Origin: a virus
IMG/VR virus record: IMGVR_UViG_3300017917_003742
Span: 11,160 to 75,159 of that record
Reading direction: 5' to 3' (one strand)
DNA length: 64,000 nucleotides
The notes under the pieces are model-generated. The model did not search any database and was not told the origin of the DNA. It saw nothing but the letters and a program-made list of their open reading frames with translations. This document shows positions 4,395 to 11,287 of the stretch, piece after piece; position 1 is the stretch's first letter, and each line of letters begins with the position of its first letter. The translations under genes and the position numbers were made by a program.

Positions 4395-5732
4395 ATGGAC
4401 GAAATCACATTAAATGAAGATCAAAAAGCTGTTTTCGAAAAACTAAAAGACTTTATTGACTCCTCTAGTCAACATATGTTTCTTATGGAAGGTGCAGCAG
4501 GCACAGGAAAAACAACAACCGTTTCGCAATTTATTGGTTGGCTTTTAGAAGAAACAAACATTTCTAACATTGCTATGGCAAGCCCAACGCACAAAGCGTT
4601 AAAGGTTATGATGGAAATGTGCCCTGATAAACATCGAGGAAGTATTCAATTTTTAACACTGCATTCTATGCTTGGATTAAAGCATGAAATTACCAAAGAT
4701 GGTAAAGAAATTTTTGTTCGTGATAAAAATGTAATGACAAAGTTTCCATTTTTTGAGCTTGTTATCATTGATGAAAGTAGTATGATTGCAGACCAACTCT
4801 TTAATGAGATGGAAGATCAAAACTATCGTAAAATCAAAGTTTTGTTTGTTGGTGACAGTAATCAGATTAATCCTGTGAATCACAAGATGAGCATTCCAAT
4901 GCTGCCTGAAAAGCGAAAAGAATTTAATATTGGTCACTGCCGACTTGAGAAAATTGTTCGTCAAGCGGAAGGCAATCCCATCATCAAATACTCTCAAAAA
5001 ATTATCAACAACGAATTCTCGTTTAATCCCGGTGAAAAAGAGATGGTTGGAGACAGCGGCATTGTAATGCTTTCAGAAAGTCAAAACAAAGTGTTACAGC
5101 AACTCTTACAGTATTATTTTGGCTCTTCAAAGTTTGACGAAGATGCAAACTATTGTAAACTCATTGCATGGAGAAACGCCACTGTAGAATTTTACAACAA
5201 GCTTGTTCGAAATTTCAAATATGGACCTAAAGCGGGTAAGATTGTGCTTGATGAAAAACTTATTGTTGACCGTCCAATTAAAGGAGATGATGATAAAGTT
5301 TCATTCGCAACAAACGAAGACTTGGTTGTGAAAAATATTGAAGTCAAAGAGAAAAAGCTTTTTGATAACGACTCTTGGCTTTATTACGACTGTCTTGTTC
5401 AAGGAATGGATAAATGCGGCAACATTCATATTCTTCATGAGAAAGAAGAAAAGCGTTACACAGACACTCTTCGTAAACTTGCCAAAGATGCAGTTGATGA
5501 AAAGGAAGTTTCCGCTCGTCTCAAAAAGTGGAGAAAATATTATTCTTTCATGGAAAACTTTGCACAGGTAAAATACAACTATGCAATTACTGCTCACTGC
5601 TCTCAAGGCAGCACATATGACAATTGCTTTGTATTACACAGTGACATTGGCATTAACCGAAACGAGGAAGAAAGACGCAGAATTCTCTACACTTCTTTTA
5701 CAAGACCAAGAAAAATGCTATACATTTTGTAA
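4395..5732 (+). CDS. dda: Dda-like SF1B DNA helicase
   Basis: GAAGTGKT, SPTHKA, TLHS, IIDESSM, GD.NQI.PV, AITAHCSQGSTY, LYT..TR. Confidence 0.9.
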   Translation: MDEITLNEDQKAVFEKLKDFIDSSSQHMFLMEGAAGTGKTTTVSQFIGWLLEETNISNIAMASPTHKALKVMMEMCPDKHRGSIQFLTLHSMLGLKHEITKDGKEIFVRDKNVMTKFPFFELVIIDESSMIADQLFNEMEDQNYRKIKVLFVGDSNQINPVNHKMSIPMLPEKRKEFNIGHCRLEKIVRQAEGNPIIKYSQKIINNEFSFNPGEKEMVGDSGIVMLSESQNKVLQQLLQYYFGSSKFDEDANYCKLIAWRNATVEFYNKLVRNFKYGPKAGKIVLDEKLIVDRPIKGDDDKVSFATNEDLVVKNIEVKEKKLFDNDSWLYYDCLVQGMDKCGNIHILHEKEEKRYTDTLRKLAKDAVDEKEVSARLKKWRKYYSFMENFAQVKYNYAITAHCSQGSTYDNCFVLHSDIGINRNEEERRRILYTSFTRPRKMLYIL

Positions 5733-5775
5733 AAAAGTGTTGAAAGTTTAAAGAATCCCATATAGATACTTTTGT

Positions 5776-5943
5776 ATGAAAACAAAAACCTATTATATGG
5801 GATTCTTCCGATATGATGACGCAAAAATTTGGAATAAAACAAATTTGAACGAAGATAAAAAAGAACTCGAAGAGTATCTTAACAATCTTCAATATGTTGA
5901 TAAGCGTTCCATCAACATCAAAACTATCGAACTGCCAGAATAA
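5776..5943 (+). CDS. Small hypothetical protein (55 aa, MKTKTYYMGFFRYDD...)
   Basis: Hand-translated. Fills the gap and abuts the next ATG (TAAATG). Below the ORF-track length cutoff. Confidence 0.65.
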   Translation: MKTKTYYMGFFRYDDAKIWNKTNLNEDKKELEEYLNNLQYVDKRSINIKTIELPE

Positions 5944-6708
5944 ATGAAAAACGTAAACGAGACAAAACTAGAGGCACTTAATATCGCCAAGCAATTTAAT
6001 GCTGGCGATTTAGATGAGCTATTAAATAATGCACAAAAAGTTCTAAACTTTTTAGAATATTATGTAGGAGACTGCTCTAATAAACTACAAGAGAAAAAAG
6101 AAAAATTTATTGAGGTTGTTGACCGACAACTAAATCAGTATAATTACAAAGACCCTCTCAGAAAAGAGTATGCGCGTCATGCAATTGTAGCAGATTATAT
6201 TGATAAGCGTTTAAAGACTGGAATTCAAGAGCTTTGCAATCAGATTGATGAAGAGGTTGGCGAGGAATACGCAACAGTAAAACCTGAATATAAGACTGGT
6301 GAAAAGATTGCAGAGGTTTTCATGAGCGGTCTTGTACCCACCGAAAAAGATTCTGTTTTTTCTAGTGGTGACTATGTTTCACCACCCGAAGAAAAAGATA
6401 CCACCTGCAAAGAAGCTGGTCATAAATCAAAGATAATTTTAACTCACAGAGAAGAAGTGGATAAAGAACTTTTAAAAGTTCTAAACGAAAAGATTCAAGA
6501 AGACATTCAAATTTCTAAAGATAATCAAAAAAAGAAGTCATGTACACCATTAGTTGATTCTTTCATAAAGCAGCAAGATAAAAAGGCGGGTAGTCCTATT
6601 GTTATAGGTAGCTCGGCAATTCAACCAATTACTGATTTCAAACATATATCAAAGGATGTTCTTGAAAGAATGCATAAAATTTCAATAAGCGAAGAAAATG
6701 GAATTTAA
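5944..6708 (+). CDS. Hypothetical protein
   Basis: 254-aa ORF coupled to neighbours. Confidence 0.7.
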   Translation: MKNVNETKLEALNIAKQFNAGDLDELLNNAQKVLNFLEYYVGDCSNKLQEKKEKFIEVVDRQLNQYNYKDPLRKEYARHAIVADYIDKRLKTGIQELCNQIDEEVGEEYATVKPEYKTGEKIAEVFMSGLVPTEKDSVFSSGDYVSPPEEKDTTCKEAGHKSKIILTHREEVDKELLKVLNEKIQEDIQISKDNQKKKSCTPLVDSFIKQQDKKAGSPIVIGSSAIQPITDFKHISKDVLERMHKISISEENGI

Positions 6709-7411
6709 TAAACAATACTGGATAGAACAATTAACTAAAGAAGTTGGTTTAGAGGGAGTTTCTTATGAGGAACTCTCAAACCACTTTGTAAACTTTGACT
6801 CATTTTTTGGAAATGACGAAGACTCTCCTACAAGCAGAGTTAATGCTAAAGAATACGTTGATCGTCAATTAGTTGAGATAGAAAAGCAATACGAGGAATT
6901 CTCTCAAACTGAAAACGCTCTTGAGTCATTTCCTTTAGCACCTTCAAAATCTTTAACACTTGATTACAACGAATCCGACATTTTCAGCCGACTTCACAAT
7001 GTTGCAAATGAAGGTTTTAAGGAAATGCCCTTTGAACAAAATTATCAAGATAATAAAATCTTGTATAACGGTGTTCCGCTTATTATTCCTGTTCAACAAA
7101 ACATTCAACGCGAAGATATTGGCTACTACGAAGTTTTTGTTGAAGGTCGTGTGTTTGTTGTTGCAATAAACAAAAAGAACGGTGACTTAAAAACAGAAGA
7201 TCAAATTAATCATGTCAAATCAACAAGTTACTTTGTAGAAGAGATCAATCCCCTAAGATTAGTTGGAGGAGAAGAAATCATTTCTTACTATCAGTTCGCA
7301 AATATGATTGAAGAAATCGTTCGTAGAAAAGGAACCGTTTCTGTTGATGTGAAACTTAAAGACAATGTTAAAACTGAATTTGATGGAGTGAAACTAGATA
7401 ATTTCCTATGA
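6698..7411 (+). CDS. Hypothetical acidic protein
   Basis: 237-aa ORF overlapping neighbours. Confidence 0.7.
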   Translation: MEFNKQYWIEQLTKEVGLEGVSYEELSNHFVNFDSFFGNDEDSPTSRVNAKEYVDRQLVEIEKQYEEFSQTENALESFPLAPSKSLTLDYNESDIFSRLHNVANEGFKEMPFEQNYQDNKILYNGVPLIIPVQQNIQREDIGYYEVFVEGRVFVVAINKKNGDLKTEDQINHVKSTSYFVEEINPLRLVGGEEIISYYQFANMIEEIVRRKGTVSVDVKLKDNVKTEFDGVKLDNFL

Positions 7412-8196
7412 TTAAAAGTTTCGAATTTAAAACAGGATTTGTAATGGGCTACGATCATTTAAAAGGTCGAGAGTTCAAATTTAATGATAAGCTGAACGTG
7501 TTGTTTGGCAACGTTGGTTCGTGCAAAAGCACTGCATTAAAAACAATGGCAGCATATTGTGGCATTCGCACAGGAGGATGGAGCACCATTTCTGAACCTG
7601 CCCAGCTTGCATACGATAGCATAAAGCATTTTCCTTTTTGCTATCGTAACTTGTCTCCAAGCAATGTTGATGCAATTGTAGATTGGGACGGAACTCCGTC
7701 ATTCTTCAACGACAGCGAGGCACTCTCTAAAAACGATAATACGTGGTTTTTTAGCAATGCAAAACAGAGTGCGGACGGAATTACCACAGAAGCAGAACAA
7801 ATGGAAATTTTGGCAAGTAAACCGTCTTCTGGACAGTATCGTATTCACAAGATCAACAAGATTATGAAGGTGATTCAAACACCGCCAAATCTTCTCCTTG
7901 TTCCACCATACATTAACAACAAAGTTCTTGCTCAAATAGAAGTCGAATACATTAAGAGTCTTCCAAGAAACGGTAAGATTACTCTTCTTTTAGATGAGCC
8001 TGAAAAGGCACTTTCTATTCCAAAGCAGATTGAATTGTTTGATGTTATGGTAAAACTGTCAGAACACTTTCAAATTATTATGGCAACTCACTCTCCTTTT
8101 ATTCTTGAGTATAAGAAAGCAAATCTTATTGACGTTACTCCCGGTTATGTTAAAGAATGCCGAACTCTGATAAAAAATATCGGAAAAGGTAAGTAA
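7408..8196 (+). CDS. Soluble ABC-type ATPase (AAA_21-like)
   Basis: Walker A GNVGSCKST, signature SSGQ, Walker B LLLDEPE, H-loop ATHSP. Confidence 0.8.
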   Translation: MIKSFEFKTGFVMGYDHLKGREFKFNDKLNVLFGNVGSCKSTALKTMAAYCGIRTGGWSTISEPAQLAYDSIKHFPFCYRNLSPSNVDAIVDWDGTPSFFNDSEALSKNDNTWFFSNAKQSADGITTEAEQMEILASKPSSGQYRIHKINKIMKVIQTPPNLLLVPPYINNKVLAQIEVEYIKSLPRNGKITLLLDEPEKALSIPKQIELFDVMVKLSEHFQIIMATHSPFILEYKKANLIDVTPGYVKECRTLIKNIGKGK

Positions 8197-8202
8197 TTTA
8201 TT

Positions 8203-8853
8203 ATGCCAGAAAAACTAGATAGGTTCTATTATAGAACCGTTAAGAAGAATTGTCTTTATTGTGGCTGTGAACTTAAATTAAATAATAATAGAGATGTGGA
8301 ACGAAAAACCTTCTGCAACAGAAGTCATTCTGCATACTGGAATAAAGATAATAGGAATTTTACTAATAACAAACCTCACAAGGAAGAGACTAAACAGAAA
8401 ATCAAAAAATCTGCAAAGGCGAGAGAAAATTGGAAAGGTGATAAAAATCCTAATTACAAAGGAAAATTAAAGAGAGGTAAACGTCTTTCTGAAAACCAAA
8501 AAGAGTTTTTACGGAAGAGAATGTTAGACGGAGGGGCTTTAGTTGCTCGAAAAGGTAATAAACGGAAAAGTTCTATTCAGATAAAAGTTGAAAATTACCT
8601 GACAAGTATAGGTATTTCTTTTATTGATGAATATAGACTCAATAATAGATTAGTTGATATTTTTATAGAGCCTAATATAGTTATTGAATGCGATGGAAAT
8701 TATTGGCACAGCTTTCCGCACATTAAACTCAAAGACGAGAAATTGAATTCTTTTTGTCGAGAAAATAATATCGAAATAATTCGTCTTACGGAAACCCAAA
8801 TAAAACAATCCGAATTTATACAAATTTTGGATAAATATTTTAATGGGAAATAA
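8203..8853 (+). mobile_element. Free-standing homing endonuclease, NUMOD3-like repeats plus DUF559/Vsr-like PD-(D/E)xK domain
   Basis: HKEETKQKIK, KGDKNPNYKG, VDIFI...VIECDG.YWH...D. Confidence 0.8.
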
Positions 8854-8983: not shown

Positions 8984-9484
8984 TTAACAAACCTTTTTAC
9001 TCAAATTACAAAATAAATCTTTTAAAGAGTTTTCGTCAAGAAAACTCTTTAATTTTTTAGGGTCCACAGGTGTTTTATTTTTGAGAAGCAACACTTCGTC
9101 AATAACACTACCCTCTAGTTCATTTACAAGAGCCTGATTTGGAATATCAGTTTTCTTTTTTAGGAAGAACAATTTGTTTGTAACACTTTTGAGTTTCTTA
9201 CAAATTTTATTAAGAAAGTTTGTTAATTTCTCACGATCATAATATTTGAATAGTTCGTGAGATTCAGAAAAAAAGTTGTCATGAAAAAATAACAAGTCTT
9301 TGTCGTTTGTTATTCTGTCGCCAAATCGTTTAACAAATAGGTAGAAAATTATTTTCTTTGCATTGCGATCTAGTTTAGAAAGCAACTTGTATTCGTATAA
9401 ACAATCAACGATTTCTTTCTCGATAAGAAATAAGAATCGGTCTATGTTCTCAAAGCTGTATAGCATAAGATAATATAACCTCAA
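8984..9484 (-). CDS. Hypothetical protein
   Basis: 166-aa ORF coupled (4-nt overlap) to the upstream minus-strand gene. Confidence 0.65.
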   Translation of the reverse strand: MRLYYLMLYSFENIDRFLFLIEKEIVDCLYEYKLLSKLDRNAKKIIFYLFVKRFGDRITNDKDLLFFHDNFFSESHELFKYYDREKLTNFLNKICKKLKSVTNKLFFLKKKTDIPNQALVNELEGSVIDEVLLLKNKTPVDPKKLKSFLDENSLKDLFCNLSKKVC

Positions 9485-10635
9485 CTGAACTCACATTCAA
9501 GTTCGTTTTTGAATGCTTGTTCTCCAGCCAATTTTATAAAATCTTCTTTCCATTTTTCATCTCTATCGGGAATGTCACTCCATATTATTTTATTCTTATG
9601 AAACGTTTCGTTGTTATAAAGTTTTATAAGAATTGAATCCTCGGTTTTTGGGGTTCCTGAAATTATAAGTTTATTAGATTTTGAACTTTTTACAACAGGT
9701 AAGCACGCTTTCAAAAATTGTTCCTTATCATCTTCTTCACAAAGATCTATATTATCTAAAATTAATAAACTGTGATTTTTACCTCTTATAATATTTGTGT
9801 TTAAACTAGAAGTGCCTATTTTACTACCATTTGAGAAATATATAGCGTCTGATCGTTGTTCAATTATTTTAGGAAAAAGAGGATTATTAAAGAAATAACA
9901 GGTTCTTCTTAATAATTCGTTGTAATGATGTGCATTCACACAGTTCATGGTATAAATTCCTGCGGAAAAATCTTTATTGAATAAACAACAGTGTAATGAG
10001 AATAATACGTGAAGCATAGACATTCCTGATTGACGACCTGCTATAGTTACGTTCATTTTATTTTCATTCCAGTCTTTTAATATTTCTTTTTGTTTATTAT
10101 ACAATTTTATAGAAGAAGACGCACCATCATGTGTGTTCCATTTGACATGATTTTCGATAAAATAAACTATATCGTTTTTACACTTTTCATATTCATCGGA
10201 TGATGAATTGTCTATAACTACTCTGTATTTTTCGATTAAATCTTTTGGGGGACCGTTGAGACGAATGTTGATAATTCCGTTATAATAATCTTCACGAAGA
10301 ATAGCATTCTCCTTTAATTGCCACATAAGTTCAAGATAGGCACTTTCCCACTTGCATGTAGTTAATTCTAGAATTTCTCTCTTAAAGTTTTCTTTACCGT
10401 ATTTCTTAAGGTCTTCTTTTAATTCATTAGAAGAACCATAGTATTTCTTCCAGTCGCTTTCTTTGACCACGCGACGACTTCTAGTTTTACCTTTTAGTGG
10501 AGGTCTTTTCTGATTGCTCCAGAATTGTTTTTTACCGATATACTTTTTACCATTAGACAGACAAGTGATACGATAAACAAAGCCAAACCACTCACTAATA
10601 TCTTCTGGAACATTTTCCCAAGAGTTTTCATTCAT
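9481..10635 (-). CDS. GIY-YIG nuclease domain fused to a degenerate terminase-large-subunit (gp17-like) ATPase domain
   Basis: N-term GFVYRIT...KKYIGKK...FKREIL...YYN. C-term EY.KC..D.VYF, L...Q, GRQSGMS, IRG...LLILDN, ISGTP, W.D.P.RD..W, F..E.ECEF. Confidence 0.75.
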   Translation of the reverse strand: MNENSWENVPEDISEWFGFVYRITCLSNGKKYIGKKQFWSNQKRPPLKGKTRSRRVVKESDWKKYYGSSNELKEDLKKYGKENFKREILELTTCKWESAYLELMWQLKENAILREDYYNGIINIRLNGPPKDLIEKYRVVIDNSSSDEYEKCKNDIVYFIENHVKWNTHDGASSSIKLYNKQKEILKDWNENKMNVTIAGRQSGMSMLHVLFSLHCCLFNKDFSAGIYTMNCVNAHHYNELLRRTCYFFNNPLFPKIIEQRSDAIYFSNGSKIGTSSLNTNIIRGKNHSLLILDNIDLCEEDDKEQFLKACLPVVKSSKSNKLIISGTPKTEDSILIKLYNNETFHKNKIIWSDIPDRDEKWKEDFIKLAGEQAFKNELECEFS

Positions 10636-10644
10636 ACTGGATAT

Positions 10645-10830
10645 TTACTTCCGTTTTTTGCGCTTTCTAGTCTTTTTGGTTTTTACTTTTCCTCTTCTGG
10701 AATATGTTCCCATTATAAACGGAGTTCGTGGATCATCTGTAGGATAAGGACCATCAGAACCTAATACTCCTGCATCAGTCATACCGTCTTCTAAAAACAT
10801 TTTTACTATTTTGTCAAAATTTTTAGTCAT
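10645..10830 (-). CDS. Small late protein with a basic C-terminus
   Basis: 61 aa. TAAATA 7 nt upstream. Ends KVKTKKTRKRKKRK. Confidence 0.7.
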   Translation of the reverse strand: MTKNFDKIVKMFLEDGMTDAGVLGSDGPYPTDDPRTPFIMGTYSRRGKVKTKKTRKRKKRK

Positions 10831-10882: not shown

Positions 10883-11287
10883 ATGAACGAAGAACCTATG
10901 GATTTACTAGAGAAATACTCTAAGGAAATAGAAATGGACACCAGTATTGATGTTACAAACATTATGGAAAAGCAACTTTCTTGCCCTAATGTTAAACATA
11001 AATGGCTTTTCAGATTAATGAAAGCCAAGAAACATCTTATTGATTTGGTGGAACTTAAAGATAATTTTGTTAACAACATAATGAACAAAGATAATCCTTT
11101 AAAGTTGAGCAAAGCAGTTATTGCAAACAAGCTCGAAACTCAAGGAGATTATAAAGAATTACAGAAAAGAATAAAAGAGCAAGAGATTCTTGTAGAATAT
11201 CTTGATAGCAGTGTGAATAAAATTTTTAGTCAGATGGGATTTGACTTTAAAAATCTTGTTGAATTGATGAAAATGGAGCAATTATGA
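10883..11287 (+). CDS. uvsY: Recombination mediator UvsY
   Basis: D..ID...KW motif, helical, 134 aa, just upstream of uvsW as in T4-like phages. Confidence 0.75.
   Translation: MNEEPMDLLEKYSKEIEMDTSIDVTNIMEKQLSCPNVKHKWLFRLMKAKKHLIDLVELKDNFVNNIMNKDNPLKLSKAVIANKLETQGDYKELQKRIKEQEILVEYLDSSVNKIFSQMGFDFKNLVELMKMEQL

Follow-up and report, generated by a model that had tools for sequence, protein, structure and literature searches.

A SegE-type GIY-YIG nuclease joined to a predicted terminase pseudo-ATPase beside uvsY in T4-like phages

Phage T4 carries a free-standing nuclease gene, segE, that adjoins uvsW and cuts uvsW (PMC2988022). T4 also encodes vs.8, a stand-alone protein resembling the ATPase domain of the large terminase subunit (TerL), which triggers the sensor EcAvs2 (PMC13601566, 2026). 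Dead terminase ATPase copies that lack the nuclease domain are known in Rak2-like jumbo phages and in Sinorhizobium phages; a "truncated large terminase" of phage CBB and Rak2-like phages was described in 2017 (PMC5259590), and no function has been proposed for such copies on evidence. Here we report a gene in which these two kinds of protein are joined. It lies in a 64,000-nucleotide stretch of IMG/VR virus record IMGVR_UViG_3300017917_003742 (positions 11,160 to 75,159), which we call the window, and it encodes P0001, a SegE-type GIY-YIG nuclease followed by a predicted inactive form of the TerL ATPase domain (TerL-N). The class of dead-terminase paralogs is already known in outline. To our knowledge, its coupling to a GIY-YIG nuclease and the series of fused, split, and absent forms at one locus are new, and our search of the literature found nothing relevant on a GIY-YIG/terminase fusion or on inactive terminase paralogs.

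A nuclease domain and a degenerate terminase domain in one protein

The open reading frame (ORF) of P0001 is intact at 384 amino acids (aa). Its N-terminal half matched the Pfam family SegE_GIY-YIG over residues 10 to 122 (E value, 3.5e-36; 124.6 bits against a cutoff of 25), and its C-terminal half matched Terminase_6N over residues 199 to 383 (E value, 9e-8; 32.4 bits against a cutoff of 22). Across the GIY-YIG halves of 29 homologs, Y21, Y32, G34, E102, and N119 were invariant and R54 was at least 90% conserved. We take Y21, Y32, R54, E102, and N119 to be the catalytic set, that is, the two tyrosines of GIY and YIG together with the arginine, the glutamate, and the asparagine. From its sequence, the GIY-YIG half is apparently catalytically intact. 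A PDB sequence search gave no match for this half. Its matches in BFVD were stand-alone SegE-like proteins of 131 to 159 aa, with a template-modeling score (TMt) of up to 0.85, and no BFVD protein spanned both domains of the fusion. Likewise, no place in INPHARED covered 80% or more of the fusion, and NCBIfam had no match for the fusion, for its stand-alone relative P0026, or for ORF160, the gene downstream of the fusion. The GIY-YIG half is basic, with an isoelectric point of ~9.4, and across the fusions the isoelectric point of the TerL-N half ranges from 5.5 to 7.5 (neutral to acidic).

We examined the C-terminal half with a profile built from P0001 and five full-length homologs (alignment A1, six proteins). 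This profile matched the T4 gp17 structures 3ezk, 2o0h, and 3cpe at an E value of 2.5e-28 over residues 146 to 336. In the profile alignment, gp17 "SRQLGKT" lies over "RQsG[MLIV]S," gp17 "IYIDE" lies over "lilDN," and the coupling motif "TTT" lies over "SGT." The Walker A lysine position was occupied by M, L, I, or V in all six proteins, and "DNID" was invariant among them. R201 and Q202 of the P-loop, the Walker B aspartate, and the adenine-contacting glutamine are kept in the fusion. An AlphaFold2 (AF2) model of the fusion, made from a 69-sequence alignment, had a mean predicted local distance difference test (pLDDT) score of 93.9 and a predicted template-modeling score (pTM) of 0.77. The best PDB matches of this model in Foldseek were the T4 gp17 ATPase domain structures 2o0j and 2o0h (E value, ~1e-19 [1.7e-19]; ~276 aligned columns), followed by other TerL ATPase domains. 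One Foldseek match was 8dgc, the Avs3-bound PhiV-1 terminase. The best PHROG match of P0001 was phrog_5989, at an E value of 3.5e-36.

The C terminus of P0001 coincides with the boundary of the ATPase domain, and no match to the Terminase_6C nuclease domain was found anywhere on the 75-kb record. We concluded from these comparisons that the C-terminal half is, as far as its sequence and predicted structure tell, a pseudo-ATPase that has kept the fold and lost the Walker A lysine, the Walker B glutamate, and the RNase H-like domain. This agrees with a first-pass annotation made from the letters of the window, which had proposed a terminase-like C-terminal domain, a lysine-to-methionine change in Walker A, an asparagine in place of the Walker B glutamate, and a missing nuclease domain. 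The coordinates and domain boundaries that it gave (Table 1) are accurate, and alignment A1 showed that both substitutions are family-wide. It had also held that the protein cannot be the packaging motor. By the mutational standard of T4 gp17, the loss of both residues and of the nuclease domain indeed predicts that P0001 is not the motor.

The fusion recurs. We recovered nine fusion sequences of 382 to 387 aa from independent assemblies. P0002 to P0006 came from the protein database, where the P0002 cluster has seven members from JGI, NCBI, ENA, and Logan; IMG/VR supplied L002, L165 (on the same contig as L179 and L283), and L280/L281. In all nine, the Walker A lysine is replaced by a hydrophobic residue and "DNID" is invariant. 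Because the fusion recurs in independent assemblies, it is not the assembly artifact that the first-pass annotation had named as a possible objection.

We then estimated the ratio of nonsynonymous to synonymous substitution rates (dN/dS) by the Nei-Gojobori method for each half separately. Between L002 and L165, at a dS of ~0.5, the ratio was 0.058 for the GIY-YIG half and 0.224 for the TerL-N half (Fisher P, 5.6e-12 against equal rates). For the window and L280, the two ratios were 0.038 and 0.25, respectively, at a dS of 1.2 to 1.7. Between the split form L178 (described below) and L165, it was 0.04 and 0.17, with a TerL-N dS near saturation (2.0). The TerL-N half is about five-fold less constrained than the nuclease half. 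Protein identity between fusions was 88 to 94% in the GIY-YIG half, and the TerL-N frame stays open at 31 to 49% identity across lineages. Recent horizontal spread as the cause of the high GIY-YIG identity was ruled out by the dS of 1.2 between the window and L280. The synonymous divergence of this half is high, and its protein identity therefore reflects strong constraint rather than recent transfer. These ratios show that the TerL-N half is under purifying selection and is selectively maintained; the dead domain does not evolve neutrally, as the first-pass annotation had allowed that it might (dN/dS, 0.17 to 0.25).

Three states of the locus and its neighboring genes

In relatives, the cassette beside uvsY runs from a small basic ORF through the GIY-YIG gene to ORF160, and most of these loci have an AAA_21-type ATPase gene on the far side of ORF160. 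We found the locus in three states. The window, L002, L165, and L280 have the fused gene. L178 is split, with a 141-aa GIY-YIG gene, 8 nucleotides (nt), a 248-aa TerL-N gene without the Walker A lysine, and then ORF160. In the short state (L003, L004, and L200 to L205), there is only a GIY-YIG gene of 136 to 156 aa, with ORF160 directly after it. A short GIY-YIG gene also lies beside uvsY in L005, where ORF160 was not detected. GIY-YIG alone was the most frequent state among the recovered loci. The GIY-YIG gene was present in every relative recovered at the locus, and only the TerL-N module was sporadic. A scan with P0002 as the query returned short-form loci only, and a metagenome scan with a narrow "DNID" query gave no match.

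The boundaries of these states are sharp. What separates the split form from the fused one is a 5-nt indel and a change of ATC to ATG, exactly at the domain boundary. In the short form L202, the 746-bp module of the window is precisely missing, with 11 bp in its place, and the two sequences are 96.2% identical across ORF160 and 98.9% identical across the AAA_21 region. Because the locus has fused, adjacent-gene, and absent forms, these sequences show the pseudo-ATPase to be a cleanly bounded, dispensable add-on to a strongly conserved nuclease.

Table 1. Features of the fusion gene and its locus in the window
Feature	Position	Strand	Basis or remark
Fusion gene P0001, 384 aa	9481..10635	-	ORF list, translation, Pfam, PHROG; TGA stop at 9481-9483
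SegE-type GIY-YIG nuclease domain, residues 1-138	10222..10635	-	Pfam PF19835
TerL (gp17-type) ATPase-fold domain, residues ~147-384	9484..10197	-	PDB profile match, AF2 and Foldseek, phrog_5989
Degenerate Walker A, G200-R-Q-S-G-M-S206	10018..10038	-	Alignment to T4 gp17; M205 at the place of gp17 K166
Degenerate Walker B, L291-I-L-D-N295	9751..9765	-	N295 at the place of gp17 E256
TerL-N presence/absence module, 746 bp, encoding residues ~139-384	9478..10223	-	blastn of L202, L003, and L200 against the window; breakpoint alignments
ORF160, 160 aa, downstream partner	8984..9466	-	Sequence, synteny, alignment A11; ATG at 9464-9466, 15 nt past the fusion stop
Small basic ORF, 61 aa, at the head of the minus-strand cassette	10645..10830	-	Ends 9 nt before the fusion ATG
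uvsY, divergent neighbor, locus anchor in every relative	10883..11287	+	Pfam UvsY, synteny by custom hidden Markov model (HMM)

ORF160 follows the GIY-YIG gene in all three states (L002, L003, L004, L165, L178, L200 to L205, and L280). It had no relative in Pfam, PHROG, or Atlas, and its AF2 model (pLDDT, 84) had no Foldseek match at E values up to 0.001. VIA matches of the model were middling only, with FEN/PIN-type 5'-nucleases recurring among them: T4 RNase H came first, with a Z score of 7.1, followed by FEN-1, ExoIX, GEN1, and T5 exonuclease. From this model, ORF160 may be a minimal or degenerate nuclease-fold partner. On the other side of the fusion, the small basic ORF has a conserved C-terminal tail, G-x-D-G-P-Y-P-T...R-T-P-F-x-M-G-T-Y-S-R and then a run of lysine and arginine. 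Its N-terminal part varies completely, and the total length is 61 aa in the window, 176 aa in L003 (4536 to 5066), and 261 aa in L004 (9204 to 9989).

The record is a 75,159-bp viral contig with an estimated completeness of 29%. In the window it carries a T4-like replication and recombination module that encodes, besides UvsY, a Dda-like helicase, a UvsW-like helicase, a gp55-type late sigma factor, a gp46-like SMC protein, a family-B DNA polymerase, a gp41-like helicase, and a gp5-like baseplate protein. The T4-type late promoter, TATAAATA, was not enriched in the window and was absent upstream of the cassette. Another nuclease gene lies close by: a 216-aa HNH/Vsr-like endonuclease ORF at 8203 to 8853 (+) that matched PHROG 559 ("HNH endonuclease") and, weakly, MTES_1575. 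It is absent from L202, where the flanks are 96 to 99% identical, and from L003, so that the same 3-kb region holds a second nuclease-gene indel. L206 has a different GIY-YIG protein, of 358 aa, at the locus.

Further observations came from single relatives. The AAA_21 ATPase homolog of L178 (8281 to 10095, -) is 604 aa long versus the usual ~262 aa, with an intein-like insertion starting within the P-loop ("GENGC" and then "LSEDTLV..."). A gp55-like ORF in L005 (12471 to 13973) also has a large intein-like insertion. L005 belongs to G002, a 236-kb T4-like record rated 100% complete, in which the short GIY-YIG gene adjoins uvsY. No Terminase_6N match was found in G002 at E values up to 0.001, and its TerL may be divergent or interrupted.

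Relatives of the module and its proposed role

An exhaustive profile search with motif extraction found many stand-alone proteins of 229 to 311 aa that consist of the TerL ATPase fold only. They share a Walker A without lysine, "DN" at Walker B, and a "G-T-P" coupling motif, and all end just past the ATPase domain. In 15 family members, D-N, R-Q-x-G, and G-T-P were invariant. For nine stand-alone relatives, as for P0027, phrog_5989 ("terminase large subunit") was the best PHROG. P0027 is a two-domain member: this 612-aa protein from a 2.4-kb contig has a lysine-less TerL-N region ("GIS," "ED") at residues 30 to 293 and a second TerL ATPase-like region at 359 to 579, and its ORF may be truncated by the contig end. 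P0128 bears a MerR/HTH_17 domain, and P0034 has an N-terminal extension that looks helix-turn-helix (HTH)-like by eye, where Pfam detected no domain.

We placed the module in a tree of 136 TerL-type ATPase domains (quick IQ-TREE, two trait columns masked). All fusion C-terminal domains fell in one clade of 20 (Shimodaira-Hasegawa-like approximate likelihood ratio test [SH-aLRT], 97) together with ten lysine-less stand-alone proteins. Two short members of this clade, P0088 and P0114, retain both the lysine and the glutamate. The L002/L165/P0006 group is sister to the stand-alone proteins P0026 and P0028 (support, 100), which therefore implies at least two fusion or fission events. The fusion clade lies far from the real TerL of a relative, and recent duplication of the phage's own terL was rejected for this reason.

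More distant short TerL-N-like ORFs abut full-length terL in L348, L307, L293, L318 to L320, L316/L317, and L227. Most have degenerate motifs, and the one in L227 keeps the lysine and the glutamate. In Xanthomonas phage Xoo-sp13 (MN047793.1), Xoosp13_242 (L177, 3214 to 3909) is annotated as a terminase small subunit (TerS). We found instead a TerL ATPase-like paralog whose gene immediately precedes the real terL. It is 27.5% identical to residues 23 to 268 of the phage's own TerL, with motifs that read "RESGTS" and "LLDV"; from these features, its small-terminase annotation is probably wrong. Such paralogs pose a general annotation problem, since they are labeled either "terminase large subunit," as in phrog_5989, or "terminase small subunit," as in Xoo-sp13. 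Another Xoo-sp13 hit, H41, was rejected as a dead paralog because it is an ordinary TerL. In L332, terL is apparently split into two ORFs (5065 to 5811 and 6205 to 7773) that cover complementary parts of the ATPase domain, which suggests an intervening element rather than a paralog.

We propose that the fusion is a two-module accessory nuclease, in which the SegE-type GIY-YIG domain would be the catalytic part and the pseudo-ATPase its non-catalytic docking partner. Taken whole, we give this proposal an even chance. Because the Walker A lysine, the Walker B glutamate, and the RNase H-like domain are lost, the pseudo-ATPase would act by binding and not by ATP hydrolysis or DNA translocation. 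It is kept beside or joined to the nuclease, and by a Rosetta-stone-type argument the two would therefore act together. On this evidence, it is quite probable that the module serves the nuclease as a partner or targeting device without catalysis of its own. Its likeliest role would be to attach the nuclease to the terminase/packaging complex or to DNA engaged by that complex; possible purposes would be to cut the DNA of a co-infecting rival or to process DNA during packaging. The native partners of a TerL ATPase domain include other such domains, TerS, and the portal. We consider the packaging complex because of these associations, because related paralogs occupy the TerS slot, and because the TerL-N half is not basic, and we hold the packaging machinery as the specific target to be a tentative suggestion only. 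The contrast between the non-basic TerL-N half and the basic GIY-YIG half would weakly favor protein docking over generic DNA binding.

Several points weigh against this proposal. The locus lies among recombination genes (uvsY and uvsW), outside the packaging module. Near-identical phages do without the TerL-N module, and any role must therefore be conditional. Inactivity of the ATPase is inferred from motif loss and from T4 gp17 genetics. The terL-adjacent paralogs are distant from the fusion clade and may be independent duplications. In addition, the fusion is the record's only Terminase_6N match. The first-pass annotation had named an intact terL elsewhere in the genome as a point to check. 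The closest relative with enough sequence, an 89.9-kb contig shared by L108 and L004, encodes a genuine 566-aa TerL with "GKS" and "DE" at L108; the window's own, 29%-complete contig showed none. At the L108 terL locus, no dead paralog adjoins terL.

A homing-type role in DNA recognition is a serious rival, because the locus lies among recombination genes and T4 segE, beside uvsW, targets uvsW. P0001 would then be a homing endonuclease of the Seg type. Its dead TerL-N domain would stand in for the usual DNA-binding region (NUMOD or HTH) and recognize specific DNA sites, in the service of homing or marker exclusion around uvsY and uvsW. TerL ATPase domains contact DNA in packaging motors, the Pfam family of the nuclease is SegE-type, and the region is a hot spot of nuclease-gene indels, as the HNH/Vsr-like ORF and the 358-aa GIY-YIG protein of L206 illustrate. 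T4 segE lies beside uvsW (PMC2988022), so the position of the fusion gene is also syntenic. However, the GIY-YIG gene is fixed in every relative at the locus with a dN/dS of 0.04 to 0.06, unlike a selfish sporadic gene; only TerL-N is polymorphic, the TerL-N halves are not basic, and the most frequent recovered state has no DNA-binding extension at all. Moreover, we know of no sequence-specific DNA binding by TerL ATPase domains. We regard a homing role as unlikely. In an anti-defense role, the dead TerL-N domain would bind or distract sensors of the terminase fold (Avs1 to Avs3 and Upx), and its fusion to a nuclease would be incidental. The domain is a close mimic of the TerL ATPase, with the Avs3-bound terminase 8dgc among its Foldseek matches, and the module is accessory, patchy, and relatively fast-evolving. 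For Upx sensors, the terminase ATPase domain suffices, whether active or not, and the authors of that study suggest that TerL-like activators other than terminases could be anti-defense proteins (PMC13601566). The vs.8/EcAvs2 and Upx results therefore show that host sensors can see such folds, but the tested stand-alone case, T4 vs.8, activates EcAvs2 and does not block it. EcAvs2 also contacts terminase-bound ATP through a bridging ATP (PMC13601566), whereas a P-loop without lysine probably holds none. A decoy would leave the repeated nuclease linkage, the HTH-bearing paralogs, and the paralogs in the TerS slot unexplained, and we consider this role improbable. The first-pass annotation had offered both a decoy for Avs receptors and a targeting of the nuclease to the portal or motor; our results give indirect support to the targeting, through the paralogs in the TerS slot beside terL, and no support to the decoy.

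The domain could instead still be active as a nucleoside triphosphatase with a non-canonical active site, which would make the fusion a nuclease that translocates or is gated by ATP. The invariance of the P-loop Arg-Gln and glycine, the Walker B aspartate, the adenine-contacting glutamine, and the coupling-motif threonine suggests that the pocket is still used, and P0088 and P0114, in the same clade, keep the lysine and the glutamate. Against this, every fusion and most stand-alone relatives lack both residues, and no compensating conserved lysine or glutamate is evident nearby. T4 gp17 loses its function when K166 or E256 is substituted. We rate residual catalysis as highly improbable. The TerL-N half might also be a functionless, decaying terL remnant that is read through from the GIY-YIG gene; its protein sequence diverges about ten times faster than that of the GIY-YIG half, and it is deleted cleanly in close relatives. 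A remnant would hardly keep an open frame at 31 to 49% identity, the low dN/dS and rate difference reported above, and invariant motif positions. The AF2 model is confident, the split form has its own ATG and an intact ORF, and the TerL of the lineage itself is no close relative of the domain. This explanation is largely refuted, and we leave it almost no weight.

The proposed two-module nuclease could be one case of something broader. Dead TerL ATPase paralogs might serve as a general plug-in adaptor that docks DNA-acting modules on the terminase or portal by mimicry of a motor subunit, an extension to which we assign a low probability. The docked module would be a GIY-YIG nuclease here; elsewhere it would be an HTH domain, or the paralog would act alone in the TerS slot. 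If so, the fusion would be a "weaponized terminase subunit" that acts at packaging and cuts DNA there, such as the genome of a co-infecting rival, and an arms race between phages would lie behind the fused/split/absent polymorphism. Short of this, the locus gives the first functional handle, a genetic association, for one branch of the dead-terminase family. It turns an unexplained family into testable hypotheses on the binding partner (nuclease, TerL, TerS, portal, or DNA), on competition in co-infection, and on sensing by Avs and Upx.

Comparison with known systems

T4 vs.8 resembles the module of the fusion in being a small protein of a T4-type phage with the terminase ATPase fold and no nuclease domain. 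In contrast, it keeps the Walker A lysine and the Walker B Asp-Glu pair ("GRQSGKS" and "IIDE"). We rejected vs.8 as a member of the fusion's family, as there was no HMM hit at E values up to 10. In the T4 genome (NC_000866; L357, 14254 to 14913, -), vs.8 is immediately beside the repair nuclease gene denV, which may be coincidence.

The nuclease half is like T4 SegE and the other free-standing Seg enzymes in its Pfam family, in being encoded by a free-standing gene, in its occurrence in T4-like phages, and in its position beside uvsW and uvsY. Unlike those enzymes, the fusion has no NUMOD or HTH extension and has a dead terminase ATPase domain instead, or nothing in the short form. Pfam found only Terminase_6N after the GIY-YIG domain, and the short forms end right after the catalytic domain. 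The nuclease gene here is also fixed and very strongly conserved, not sporadic.

The C-terminal half shares its fold with T4 gp17 (2o0h and 3cpe), with homology from before the adenine-binding glutamine to the end of the ATPase domain, and it keeps the P-loop Arg-Gln-x-Gly and the Walker B aspartate. It differs from gp17 in the change of the Walker A lysine to methionine, of the Walker B glutamate to asparagine, and of TTT to SGT, and in having no RNase H-like domain. In addition, the fusion gene lies outside the packaging module and its TerL-N part is dispensable. Further close parallels are the dead or truncated TerL paralogs (phrog_5989, CBB_274-like), which are likewise ATPase-only, at ~215 to 300 aa, with degenerate motifs and phrog_5989 as the best match; the CBB protein was a structural match of the fusion module in BFVD (TMt, 0.80). 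Those paralogs stand alone, mostly directly upstream of terL, although this position does not strictly define the family, and the terL-adjacent forms examined belong to a separate clade from the fusion module. In contrast, the module described here is fused to, or in L178 adjacent to, a GIY-YIG nuclease, between ORF160 and uvsY.

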